From positions 4,151,820-4,215,819 of the forward strand of contig OW818676.1 of the NCBI GenBank assembly GCA_942493235.1: 64,000 nt of DNA, written 5' to 3'. The position numbers and the translations under genes are program-made. Under the pieces are notes generated by a model. The model did no database searches. It was not told where the DNA came from and saw only the letters and a program-made list of their open reading frames with translations. This DNA is from an uncultured bacterium. Its GTDB lineage: Bacteria; Bacteroidota; Ignavibacteria; Kapaibacteriales; UBA2268. Shown here piece by piece: positions 13,947 to 16,829 of this stretch (position 1 is its first letter; every line of letters starts with the position of its first letter).

Positions 13947-14022
13947 CATTCTGAACGAAGTGAAGAATCCAGATAAAGCTAACTTGTAGATAATTCTGGA
14001 TTCTTCGTTTCACTCAGAATGA
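13947..14022. repeat. Palindromic hairpin element, copy 1, between convergent kinase gene and groEL
   Basis: cattctgaacgaagtgaagaatccag / ctggattcttcgtttcactcagaatg arms pair over 26 positions with 2 mismatches, ~20-nt loop; near-identical copy at 16756-16829; T/A runs on both sides. Confidence 0.6.
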
Positions 14023-14075
14023 CGATTTAGAAACATTATTACTTTTTTGATAACCTCTAGGAAATTATATAATAA

Positions 14076-14112
14076 AAAACTCCCTCTCCGCATAGCAGAG
14101 AAGGAGTTTATA
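14076..14112 (-). terminator. Probable intrinsic terminator downstream of groEL
   Basis: On minus strand: ctccttctctgc tatg cggagagggag hairpin followed by tttttt. Confidence 0.5.
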
Positions 14113-14133
14113 ATTCTATCGGACAAGATTCGA

Positions 14134-15789
14134 TTAATAATCCATTCCGCCCATACCCGGCATTCCACCCGGCATAGATGGCATTGGAGAATCTTTGCTT
14201 GGTTTTTCTACGATTGTTACTTCAGTAGTTAATAATAAACCTGATACTGAAGCTGCATTCTCTAAAGCAACACGGCTAACCTTAGTAGGGTCGATTACGC
14301 CGGCTTCAAATAAGTCTTCGTATTGTTCATTATAGGCATTGAAACCAAATGAACCAGTACCTTCTTTAACTTTATTAACTATTACCGATGCTTCTAAACC
14401 TGCATTAGTAACGATTTGGCGAATTGGTTCTTCGATTGCTTTACGGATAATGTTAACGCCGATTTTTTGGTCTTCGTTTTCAGTAACTACATTATCTAAT
14501 TCTTTCATAGCTCTTAAATAAGCAACGCCGCCACCGGGGACGATACCTTCTTCAACAGCGGCACGTGTTGCGTGAAGTGCATCTTCAACGCGTGCTTTTT
14601 TCTCTTTCAATTCGATTTCTGTAGCAGCACCGATTCTTAATACTGCAACACCGCCACTTAATTTAGCAAGGCGTTCTTGTAATTTTTCTCTATCATAGTC
14701 AGATGTTGTTTTTTCAATCTGAATTTTTATTTCATTGATTTTCTTTTTGATTTCTTCAGAAGAGCCGGCACCTTCGACAATTGTAGTATTGTCTTTGTCG
14801 ATAGTTACGGTTTTAGCTGTTCCAAGATATCCGACTGAAGCGTTGTCCAGCTTGAAGCCTTTTTCTTCGCTGATAACTGTACCGCCGGTTAATACAGCGA
14901 TATCTTCAAGCATTGCTTTACGTCTGTCGCCAAAGCCAGGAGCTTTAACTGCAGCAACTCTTAATGTGCCACGTAGTTTGTTAACTACTAAAGTAGCAAG
15001 AGCTTCGCCCTCTAAGTCTTCAGAGATAATTAGTAATGAGCGACCACTTTGAGATACTCTCTCTAAGATTGGTAATAAATCTTTGATAGCAGAGATTTTT
15101 TTGTCATGAATCAAGATATAAGGATTCTCTAAAACTGCTTCCATTGCTTCAGCATCTGTTACGAAATATGGTGATAAATATCCTCTGTCGAACTGCATGC
15201 CCTCTACTACTTCCATATCAGTCTCTGTTCCTTTTGCTTCTTCTACTGTGATAACGCCGTCTTTGCCGACTTTGTCCATAGCTTCAGCAATTAGAACGCC
15301 AATTGTTTTGTCATTATTAGCTGAAATTGTTCCTACTTGAGCAATTTCTTTTTTGCCTTCTACTTCGCGGCTGATGTCTCTCAAACCTTTAGTAACGGCA
15401 GCAACTGCAAGATCAATACCGCGTTTTAAATCCATAGGATTTGCACCGGCAGTTACATTTTTCAAACCTTCACGGAAGATTGCCTGAGCTAAAACAGTAG
15501 CTGTTGTAGTACCGTCGCCGGCTACATCACTTGTTTTAGAAGCAACTTCGCGAACCATAGCGGCTCCCATGTTCTCAACTGCGTCTTCTAATTCGATTTC
15601 TTTTGCAACAGTAACGCCGTCTTTAGTGATAGTCGGTGCACCGAATTTTTTATCTATAATTACATTACGACCCTTTGGTCCTAATGTAGCTTTTACAGCA
15701 TTTGCTAATTGATCAACGCCATTTTTTAAAGTGGCACGAGCATCAAAATCAAAGTTAATTAACTTAGCTCCCATTTTATATTTCTCCAT
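14134..15789 (-). CDS. groL: Chaperonin GroEL (60 kDa); true start may be Met at 15774
   Basis: Full-length GroEL signatures ([28 protein letters not shown]-terminal [11 protein letters not shown] tail). Confidence 0.97.
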
Positions 15790-15948
15790 TTATTCTTATT
15801 AAAATTTTTATTTATATTTCTCAATTTTTTCAAAGCATTGCTTTGAGTTTATTATTTCTCATTACAACATTCCGAACTTTTTCTCATAACAACGCTATGC
15901 GTTGTAATGTCTGGCAATCCTACGCAGTGCGTAGGAGTAAGAAAATAT

Positions 15949-16236
15949 TTATTTTACGATAGCAAAAACGTCAGATTCTCTCATCATTAAATAGTCTTCG
16001 CCGTCCATAGAAATTTCAGTACCTGAATATTTGCCGTAGATTACTTGGTCGTTTACTTTTACTTGTAGAGGAAGTACTTTGCCCTCTTCAGTGATTTTGC
16101 CGTTACCAACAGCGATTACTGTACCCTGCATTGGTTTTTCTTTTGCAGTATCGGGAATAATAATTCCGCCCTTAGTTACTTCTTCAGGAGCAGAAGCTTT
16201 TACGATAATTCTGTCGTATAATGGTGTTAAATTCAT
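15949..16236 (-). CDS. groS: Co-chaperonin GroES (10 kDa)
   Basis: 95 aa, [13 protein letters not shown]...GTVIAVGNG... typical Cpn10; immediately upstream of groEL. Confidence 0.95.
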
Positions 16237-16292
16237 TTGAAACCTCCAATTATAAATTATTATATAAAAAATGTATTGTTATTATTTAGATT

Positions 16293-16319
16293 TTAGCACT
16301 CTCAGTACAAGAGTGCTAA
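16293..16319. promoter_or_regulatory. CIRCE operator (HrcA binding site) in the groES-groEL promoter region
   Basis: TTAGCACTC-tcagtacaa-GAGTGCTAA, a perfect 9-N9-9 match to the CIRCE consensus, ~60-80 bp upstream of the groES start. Confidence 0.85.
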
Positions 16320-16654
16320 CAATTTGACGATAGTATTTTTTTATTATTGTAGAGGTAGGGATTTTTTTAGTAAAATTATTTGGTAATTTATGTATAAATT
16401 GGGTCTTCGCTATTTTAAGTGGGTTAGCAAATAATTGTTATTAGTATAAAGAAAATCCTTAAATATCAAATATTGATTTTTGATATTTAATTGGATATAC
16501 ATCTTTAATTTTATATTTTAACTCCGTTAGATGTTGAATATTGGTAATATAATGAATAAACTACTCCCCATTCTTAATACATCAAATATAATATAATATA
16601 TTATGTAAACCGTAATTCGTAATTGAAACAAGCCCTCTCCTTCCCTTCCTCAAA

Positions 16655-16715
16655 CGTTCTGCGTCGTGCGGCTGTTCTTCCAACATCGTTAGATGTTGAA
16701 TATTGGTAAAATGAA
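16655..16715. repeat. Dispersed intergenic repeat family 'ctgcgt(a/c)gtgcggct-ttctt-caaca(g/t)cgttagatgttgaatattggta' (copy D)
   Basis: Near-identical cores at 25205-25260, 61262-61300 and 16517-16550 (3' half); first-half relatives at 59155-59190 and 15912-15942. Confidence 0.55.
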
Positions 16716-16755
16716 AGTTTAAATATACTCCCATAAAGCTTTCTAAAATATTGTC

Positions 16756-16829
16756 ATTCTGAACGATTGAAGAATCCAGATAAAACTTACTTGCTGATAA
16801 TTCTGGATTCTTCGTTTCACTCAGAATAA
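16756..16829. repeat. Palindromic hairpin element, copy 2, downstream of the lytTR-type regulator gene, in the long groES upstream region
   Basis: gtcattctgaacgattgaagaatccaga ... tctggattcttcgtttcactcagaataac; same family as 13947-14022, including the flanking sequence cactcagaat(g/a)acgattt(a/g)g. Confidence 0.6.

Follow-up and report, generated by a model that had tools for sequence, protein, structure and literature searches.

The CGTC-tagged superfamily of repetitive extragenic palindromes (REPs) and the recently described Ssn nucleases, with their Ssn-related motifs (SRMs), are the known systems closest to a pair of hairpin-forming repeats that we examine here. These repeats, called elements A and B, flank the groES-groEL (groESL) operon of an uncultured bacterium of the Kapaibacteriales (Bacteroidota; Ignavibacteria; UBA2268). 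They lie in a stretch of 64,000 nucleotides of assembly GCA_942493235.1 (contig OW818676.1, positions 4,151,820 to 4,215,819, forward strand), which was analyzed as a whole and is referred to below as the window.

In the CGTC-tagged REPs, as surveyed by Di Nocera et al. (BMC Genomics 2013, PMC3733652), a tag that is often TGTC, and also CCTC, goes with an 8-9-bp stem starting with A,T, a loop of 4-5 nt, and a CCA tail. The units form mostly head-to-head dimers, often heterodimers; Chlorobi and Bacteroidetes are among the hosts, and the superfamily includes the dRS3 repeats of Neisseria and RPE-4/6 of Rickettsia. No association with transposase genes, or with those of REP-associated tyrosine transposases (RAYTs), was found, and repeats with more than one mismatch were dropped from the survey.

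SsnA is a 94-aa single-domain GIY-YIG protein (cd10448; Chenal et al., Nat Commun 2025, PMC11893778). Its target, the Neisseria repeat NTS (CGTCATTCCCGCGMAVGCGGGAATCYRG), is bound solely as single-stranded DNA (ssDNA) and solely on the sense strand, with no binding to RNA or to double-stranded DNA, and the cut falls just upstream of the NTS. The bases that weigh most for activity are the three preceding the palindrome and the C that follows it. At least one SRM flanks 71% of ssn genes, and 42% have one on both sides. In Neisseria meningitidis, the system lowers the integration of NTS-bearing transforming DNA, and the authors note the likeness of Ssn/SRM to insertion sequence (IS) elements and to REP/RAYT (PMC11893778).

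We consider it likely that A and B are gene-less, head-to-head dimers of a CGTC/TGTC-tagged REP or SRM of a variant type containing G.A mismatches, and that they are partner sites of an Ssn nuclease. The G.A-type motif and the protein found with it elsewhere are an Ssn/SRM system with a variant class of motif that escapes the published search string.

Limits and anatomy of the two elements

An initial annotation of the window had reported two near-identical imperfect palindromes with conserved flanks, one at each end of groESL. Repeat search and alignment find them there, and the quoted flanks are present in both copies. Each element is about 125 nt long, and A and B are 86% identical and in the same orientation. 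The repeat search returned a direct repeat of 96 nt (13961-14056 and 16768-16863, 86% identity) with a 29-nt leftward extension (13930-13958 and 16738-16766, also 86%). In pairwise alignment, the similarity ends at approximately 13930-14056 and 16738-16863, with nothing beyond. A and B are therefore not parts of a larger duplicated segment. The limits of B can also be placed independently. A local alignment of 16490-16640 with 16650-16915 showed that the segment 16525-16627 resembles 16686-16724 joined to 16864-16899, that is, the surroundings of B minus B itself, which puts the limits of the element near 16738 and 16863 and gives it the look of an insertion.

The inverted arms of A (13940-13973 and 13995-14028) are 34 nt long and 82% complementary, with 21 nt between them. 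As RNA, both strands of both elements fold far better than shuffled sequences (z -5.1 to -6.8), and no shuffle equalled them: A reaches -42.6 kcal/mol on the plus strand and -39.2 on the minus strand (z -6.5 and -6.8), and B -34.1 and -33.2 kcal/mol (z -5.2 and -5.1). Folded as DNA, the two strands of A give -21.8 and -20.9 kcal/mol (z -7.3 and -6.5). Only four arms are found in the 64-kb window, all of them in A and B, and the 30-nt arm had no match in 100 shuffles.

Each element is more aptly seen as a pair of inverted copies of one oriented, 29-nt unit than as one long palindrome. The layout of the unit is a (C/T)GTC tag, the palindrome ATTCT-GA-NN-GAA-NN-GA-AGAAT, and a CCAG tail. The left arm of A as read is GAACGAAGTGA, and the right arm on its own strand is GAGTGAAACGA. 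The parts are as follows:

13930..14056, no strand: element A, the repeated unit, comprising a head-to-head dimer and short conserved flanks; limits from the A/B alignment
13944..13972, plus strand: left arm of A, TGTC, ATTCT-GA-AC-GAA-GT-GA-AGAAT, CCAG; an exact match to the pan-phylum pattern GTCATNCTGANNGAANNGAAGNATC, with family covariation
13973..13995, no strand: spacer between the arms of A, at the position of the ssn gene in autonomous motif(+)-ssn-motif(-) units
13996..14024, minus strand: right arm of A, CGTC, ATTCT-GA-GT-GAA-AC-GA-AGAAT, CCAG; inner stem GT/AC where the left arm has AC/GT
16738..16863, no strand: element B, the repeated unit; insertion-like in local alignment with the paralogous segment 16525-16627
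16752..16779, plus strand: left arm of B, degenerate; a 1-nt deletion (GAACGA-TTGAAG) breaks the inner mini-hairpin
16803..16831, minus strand: right arm of B, with a degenerate tag, CGTT where A has CGTC (GTTATTCTGAGTGAAACGAAGAATC)

The tag is TGTC in the left arms of A and B, CGTC in the right arm of A, and CGTT in the right arm of B, so that GTC is kept in all but the last (GTT); the CCAG tail is present on all four arms. Each unit can be folded alone: a stem of 5 bp leads through a tandem G.A/A.G to an inner stem of 2 bp, which is closed by a GAA loop. The arms of A differ at four bases (AC/GT against GT/AC). These changes keep both mini-hairpins and break the long inter-arm stem, and they are the origin of the internal mismatch that the annotation had correctly recorded in that stem. 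As the units are inverted, each dimer presents one sense copy on each DNA strand. Copy B, mutated in both arms, is probably decaying.

Distribution of the unit and its nuclease partner

An exact search of IMG/VR for the 25-nt core of the unit, GTCATYCTGARCGAAGYGAAGRATC, gave 78 matches in 69 stretches, against about 0.003 expected by our estimate. The pattern with six free positions, GTCATNCTGANNGAANNGAAGNATC, is found in 87 IMG/VR stretches and has at least 120 matches in species-representative genomes, and the record titles of the matches listed cover more than 20 phyla. Among these listed matches are Patescibacteria, Acidobacteriota, Nitrospirota, Planctomycetota, Bacteroidota, Ignavibacteria, Chlorobi, Chloroflexota, Gemmatimonadota, Bacillota, Alphaproteobacteria, Bdellovibrionota, Verrucomicrobiota, Armatimonadota, Calditrichota, Nitrospinota, Actinomycetota, and others. 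What the loci have in common is the arm only; loops and flanks are not shared.

Covariation within the core is extensive. Positions 6 and 21 are paired in all 94 distinct sites (T-A 54, C-G 28, G-C 7, A-T 4, T.G 1), and the inner stem is GC/GC in 70 of them, AC/GT in 14, and GT/AC in two, with five wobbles and three mismatches making up the remainder. The family loop is GNA, and longer inner hairpins are also found within a GTCATNCTGA...GAAGN'ATC shell. In the flank logo, where GTC and the trailing C were fixed by the search pattern and not free to vary, the base before GTC is T in 85% and C in 10% of sites (95% T or C at -1), and T or C follows ATC. The two arms of head-to-head dimers have different inner stems in 24 of 55 cases, and in 20 of these 24 both arms are still locally paired. 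That dimers with unlike arms keep their local pairing argues for selection on each arm's own fold and not on the long inter-arm stem. Across 207 loci, 50 pairs were head-to-head and 11 tail-to-tail. Single units were mostly intergenic, with a weak orientation bias relative to neighboring genes under a crude open reading frame (ORF) model, and in viral contigs many of them lay just upstream of start codons.

Peptides of the 'VILSEAKNL' or 'SFASLRMT' type occur in the translations of ORFs near the motif, and we take the 25-nt hairpin to be the source of many spurious small ORFs of this kind. A full-text search of the literature found no paper printing the motif strings or their pseudo-peptides. 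Rfam gave no family match, either in a gathering-threshold search of the whole window or in a search of 13700-17000 at a permissive E-value, where the long hairpin returned only chance microRNA-like matches. Two structured motifs were rejected by inspection: the NGA of CUGANGA required for a hammerhead ribozyme core (CUGA...GAA) is absent, a kink-turn would have a 3-nt bulge that is likewise absent, and in both cases the flanks simply close into the hairpin.

When the ORFs within 1.5 kb of the motif were clustered across the 207 loci, one recurrent non-phage family was found, a 95-110-aa GIY-YIG protein whose sole domain is PF01541 (E ~1e-16). It is present at seven loci, from Saccharibacteria, Gracilibacteria, Cyclobacteriaceae, Lutibacter, Ignavibacteriales, an alphaproteobacterium, and a viral contig. 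The motif brackets the gene in all seven: the sense copy precedes it by 10-100 nt, the antisense copy immediately follows the stop codon, and exact copies of both arm variants of the window are found at two of them. The variant of the right arm of A (GT/AC) flanks ssn in Lutibacter (L148), in Saccharibacteria (L090), and on a Planktothrix plasmid (L297). Phage structural proteins topped the neighbor clusters but were rejected as having no link to the motif, the sample containing several related IMG/VR contigs.

The reciprocal test began from the protein. In 80 metagenome loci selected by similarity to the GIY-YIG protein only, the strict motif lies within 200 nt of the gene in 54 (upstream in 34, downstream in 43, on both sides in 23). 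Its density is 3.02 per kb near the gene and 0.037 per kb at more than 500 nt away, a local enrichment of about 80-fold. With the generalized shell, the count rises to 60 of 80 loci, with both sides occupied in 42, and most of the motif-negative loci inspected have the same shell with a longer inner hairpin. The initial annotation's alternative proposal, a mobile family of miniature repeats like REPs or miniature inverted-repeat transposable elements, was essentially right as to family: these are widespread tagged hairpins that bracket a small nuclease gene.

The relationship to Ssn is visible in the protein itself. In a plasmid collection, where the matches were to chromosome-sized records of Neisseria gonorrhoeae, the G.A-type protein is 46% identical to an ORF of that species (95% coverage, E 4e-16) around which there are seven canonical NTS copies. 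CGTC...CCA hairpins fitting the published SRM string flank the homologues of Rhizobium, Azospirillum, and Sphingobium (42-55% identity), and motifs of the G.A type flank those of Planktothrix (68% identity) and Spirosoma. Ssn proteins of the G.A type include WP_083616022.1 of Planktothrix and the Ignavibacteriales ORF at locus L154. The nearest solved structures are two uncharacterized UPF0213 GIY-YIG proteins, and literature searches combining GIY-YIG with REP, COG2827, or UPF0213 found nothing relevant.

Two of the plasmid loci have features of their own. On plasmid AZO_p3 of Azospirillum lipoferum 4B (L299, NC_016623.1 255506-255799), ssn lies between sufB and sufC with canonical CGTC...CCAG dimers on both sides, which looks like an insertion into the operon. 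On plasmid p1 of Planktothrix agardhii (L297, NZ_LR882964.1 18847-19131), ssn and dimers of the G.A-type motif sit in a defense island, with an MmeI-type restriction-modification gene and DISARM drmA as neighbors. The 68% identity of this protein to the Saccharibacteria (L090) homologue suggests horizontal transfer.

The groESL locus and other features of the window

The genes around A and B are arranged as the annotation had described, with each element at the 3' end of convergent or co-directional genes. Element A is flanked by a convergent hybrid histidine kinase gene (end at 13792, plus strand) and groEL (end at 14134, minus strand). Element B has on one side the 3' end of a gene for a LytTR regulator (16901, minus strand), part of an operon of LytTR regulator and LytS-type kinase, and on the other the groES promoter with its CIRCE operator. 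The features of the operon are:

14077..14109, minus strand: intrinsic terminator of groEL, a 15-bp stem followed by a T-run, located between the groEL stop codon and element A and outside the repeat; from the terminator scan
14134..15774, minus strand: groEL, context gene, 546 aa, Pfam Cpn60
15949..16236, minus strand: groES, context gene, 95 aa; Cpn10 in syntenic relatives
16293..16319, minus strand: CIRCE operator upstream of groES, TTAGCACTC-N9-GAGTGCTAA, read from the sequence; also in relatives

In relatives with 92-95% identical GroEL (Kapabacteria/Ignavibacteriota-like), CIRCE, groES, a spacer of 48-80 nt, groEL, and a terminator of the same type are all kept. Outside the operon these loci are not syntenic with the window, and they were therefore scored for the presence or absence of repeats. 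Five of the six sequence-distinct loci have no such repeats at either end of groESL. The long hairpins are not part of the heat-shock operon, a conclusion that follows from groEL's own terminator, the lack of repeats in most relatives, and the absence of B from the paralogous segment.

The sixth relative (L215, GCA_964539225.1, 94% GroEL) has TGTC-tagged hairpins of another subtype, with ATTCCTGC stems (for example, TGTCATTCCTGCGAATGCAGGAATCTAA), at positions other than those of A and B. One unit, at 1676, is in the groES-groEL spacer, and a cluster of about eight TGTC-tagged units at 3589-4146, with an assembly gap inside it, lies a short way past the groEL terminator. The decoration of groESL thus recurs in this genome with different positions and units. 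Several other metagenome contigs with 95%-identical groEL (L211, L212, and L214) end a few bases from its stop codon, which assembly breaks at downstream repeats would explain.

The operon and its surroundings contain further repeats. The groES-groEL spacer of the window (15775-15948) is about 175 nt long against 48-80 nt in the same relatives, and holds three small palindromes, CAAAGCATTGCTTTG (~15830-15846), ACAACGCTATGCGTTGT (15889-15905), and CCTACGCAGTGCGTAGG (15919-15935); these look like further inserted repeat DNA within the operon. A second family of palindromic repeats, unrelated to A and B, has the core TTCTTNCAACAGCGTTAGMTGTTGAATATTGGTA with a CAACAGC/GCTGTTG stem and five copies in the window: 16498-16546, 16660-16708, 25199-25247, and 61242-61290 on the plus strand and 29364-29394 on the minus strand. 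Two of them share the spacer upstream of groES with element B.

Four observations concern more distant parts of the window. At 20004-20147 is a 66-nt tandem duplication (92% identity) containing GTTGAATGCCGCTGGGGTGRGCATTTGCGAC, with a third, diverged copy 37 kb away at 57379-57427. Inverted repeats of 33 nt (24269-24301 and 29404-29436, 97% complementary) enclose a 5.1-kb segment that carries a metallo-beta-lactamase-fold gene, an IS5-like DDE transposase (25382-26458), a ferritin, a type III polyketide synthase, and an ICMT-family methyltransferase, and that may be a composite mobile segment. On the minus strand, 41148-45341 is a 1397-aa ORF in which the domains of TilS (tRNA-Ile lysidine synthetase) make up the C-terminal ~440 residues only, whereas arrays of tandem repeats, with units of 15, 45, 48, and 63 nt (43400-45031), code for the N-terminal ~950 residues. 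Finally, three paralogous small ORFs (147, 147, and 136 aa) lie in a row at 243-2030, without a Pfam match and with blocks of 85-95% identical DNA between them.

Competing explanations and comparison with known systems

The annotation had favored a role for A and B as bidirectional intrinsic terminators insulating the transcription of groESL, and there are grounds for such a view. Folded as RNA, both strands give very stable hairpins (-33 to -43 kcal/mol), both elements are at gene 3' ends, short T-runs lie past the stems on the minus strand (AAATTTTTAG after A and AATATTTTAG after B), and the scan detected no other terminator between the LytTR gene and B. REPs in general are also reported to be located mostly downstream of genes and to function as RNA elements (PMC3733652). 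As a primary role, however, termination finds no support. A canonical terminator of groEL already precedes element A. Intrinsic terminators combine a G+C-rich stem and a 3-8-nt loop with a T-run starting within 0-2 nt of the stem. The consensus scan called the groEL terminator and neither A nor B, the loops of which are 21-23 nt and the nearest T-runs of which begin 3-14 nt past the stem. Five of the six sequence-distinct loci from relatives are without such repeats, copy B has disruptive mutations, and neighboring genes impose no strong strand bias on single units. Across the family, it is the mini-hairpin of each arm that selection preserves, with the long stem giving way to it, and the substrate of the cognate protein family is ssDNA and not RNA (PMC11893778). 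We therefore regard this explanation as unlikely, although it is plausible that the elements have some incidental influence on 3' ends, B in particular, which follows the LytTR operon.

A function on transcripts of another kind, as a small RNA or as a protein-binding hairpin with tandem G.A pairs in an untranslated region, strikes us as very improbable. Tandem G.A pairs with a GNA loop are stable motifs in RNA too, the covariation fits RNA and ssDNA alike, and the many viral units just upstream of start codons would suit such a role. Against this stand the lack of an Rfam family even at permissive thresholds, the weak orientation bias relative to genes, and the placing of the sense motif on opposite strands at the two ends of both dimers and ssn units, a symmetry of the DNA type; moreover, Neisseria SsnA does not bind RNA (PMC11893778). 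Classical REPINs mobilized by a RAYT, an IS200/IS605-type Y1 transposase, have the same architecture, in which two inverted, self-folding REP-like units and a spacer form a hairpin (PMC3116915), but here the tag is TGTC/CGTC and not GTAG, and the only neighbor recurring across phyla in the 207 loci is the GIY-YIG protein, with no recurrent Y1 transposase beside the motif. With CGTC-tagged REPs explicitly lacking an association with RAYTs (PMC3733652), we give this origin scant credence. Least probable of all, to the point of being negligible, is a chance pair of palindromes or the two ends of a local segmental duplication including groESL. That there are two copies only in 64 kb, 2.8 kb apart, might suggest it, but by our estimate ~9% of random placements would be that close, which is not significant. 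No shuffle matched the elements, their similarity stops at ~125 nt, and hundreds of unrelated genomes have the same unit.

The identification of A and B as gene-less dimers of the G.A-type motif has difficulties of its own. No ssn gene lies within the 64-kb window, and the published SRM string, HGTCWYN(0-2)YYVSBRHN(0-5)WNVSBRGN(0-2)RNCYNB, has no match anywhere in the window, the four arms included, and does not fit the pan-phylum consensus, whereas it does match NTS controls. Binding and cutting restricted to ssDNA have been shown for the Neisseria and Wolbachia Ssn enzymes only (PMC11893778). Single arms fold weakly as DNA (-0.8 and -1.4 kcal/mol with standard nearest-neighbor parameters), no better than shuffles, and the long inter-arm hairpin (-21 to -22 kcal/mol) would, on these models, dominate local folds in free ssDNA. 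The case for local folding rests on covariation, since nearest-neighbor folding of the single A+T-rich arms gave no stable hairpin; to our knowledge, standard DNA folding parameters do not credit sheared G.A pairs and GNA triloops. The unit common to A and B extends beyond the arms, by 14 nt on the left and ~30 nt on the right, and this extra length is not explained by simple cleavage beside the tag. Neither a target-site duplication nor an exact empty site was found in comparison with the groESL loci of relatives, which are non-syntenic outside the operon, and we infer rather than observe the mobility of A and B.

A mechanism can nevertheless be proposed on the model of Neisseria, where Ssn binds the folded motif in ssDNA and cuts just upstream of the tag. 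The G.A-type units would be the corresponding partner sites. Autonomous units are arranged as motif(+)-ssn-motif(-), and A and B have the same layout with a 23-nt spacer replacing the gene; both presumably entered the intergenic DNA as insertions. If the genome has a cognate Ssn at another locus, that enzyme would cut ssDNA at the left and right arms of A, each on its own strand, and the arms of B are predicted to be poor substrates. In Neisseria, such cutting limits the recombination of incoming DNA across flanked genes. Any consequences for transcripts would be a by-product.

More tentatively, the CTGA/GAAG motif could represent a distinct, horizontally spreading Ssn-SRM lineage, with a near-constant site of 25-28 nt in more than 20 phyla (including candidate-phyla-radiation bacteria, Cyanobacteria, Bacillota, and Bacteroidota) and one broadly shared ssDNA-nuclease specificity built on non-Watson-Crick pairs. 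The recurrence at groESL, in the window and in L215, would then reflect a gene-flanking role like that of NTS-gene-NTS and not chance. We offer this wider proposal as a possibility about which we are doubtful. If one Ssn specificity were so widely shared, it would supply ssDNA tools with a ready-made, defined pair of site and enzyme, and would serve as a marker by which the horizontal spread of these elements could be followed.

The immediate consequence is for annotation: A and B are to be seen as repeat DNA that landed beside groESL, and should not be entered as part of the heat-shock regulon or as its terminators. The CGTC/TGTC-tagged REPs, the Ssn nuclease family of 2025, and the 25-nt multi-phylum hairpin are now linked, and are still separate in databases. 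The REP/SRM kind of repeat was already known; what is new here is the G.A-type class, missed by the published SRM string, and the near-identity of its 25-nt site across phyla.

Comparison with known systems brings out how far this class departs from each of them. With Rho-independent terminators, and with the mRNA-stabilizing hairpins of REPs and bacterial interspersed mosaic elements, A and B share a stable hairpin at gene 3' ends and a weakly T-rich downstream sequence on the minus strand. They differ in their loop of 21-23 nt, their A+T-rich stem of 29 bp, the absence of an abutting U-tract, the conservation of the sequence itself across phyla, and orientation rules that are those of a DNA element. 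REPINs and RAYTs (Bertels and Rainey 2011, PMC3116915) are alike in their inverted, self-folding REP doublets with a spacer, gene-less relatives of repeats that bracket a small nuclease or transposase gene acting on ssDNA hairpins, but the enzyme here is a GIY-YIG and not an HUH/Y1 transposase, and the tag is not GTAG.

The CGTC-tagged REPs are closer. The CGTC/TGTC tag, the A,T start of the stem, its nine positions, the CCA tail, the head-to-head dimers, and the absence of a transposase are all shared. Described stems are fully paired, whereas the G.A-type stem has G.A at two of its nine positions and ends in a GNA loop of 3 nt; with the closing pair counted as loop, the G.A-type stem is 8 and the loop 5, against 8-9 and 4-5 in the CGTC REPs. 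This comparison is with the survey's verbal description of the superfamily.

Closest of all are the SRMs and NTS. Differences lie in the interior of the G.A-type unit, CTGA-NN / NN-GAAG with a tandem G.A, a 2-bp stem, and a GNA triloop where the NTS has a G+C-rich Watson-Crick stem, in its length, greater by 1 nt, and in its usual tag (TGTC, 85%) and usual tail (TC). The likenesses extend from the repeat to the gene. Both are oriented hairpins with a (C)GTC tag, an ATTC...GAAT stem, a C after the palindrome, and a CYRG tail (CCAG here), and both bracket a single-domain GIY-YIG gene of ~94 aa on both sides while also flanking ordinary genes. The proportion of such genes with at least one motif is 68% here and 71% in PMC11893778, that with motifs on both sides is 29-52% and 42%, and the associated protein is 46% identical to its Neisseria orthologue.

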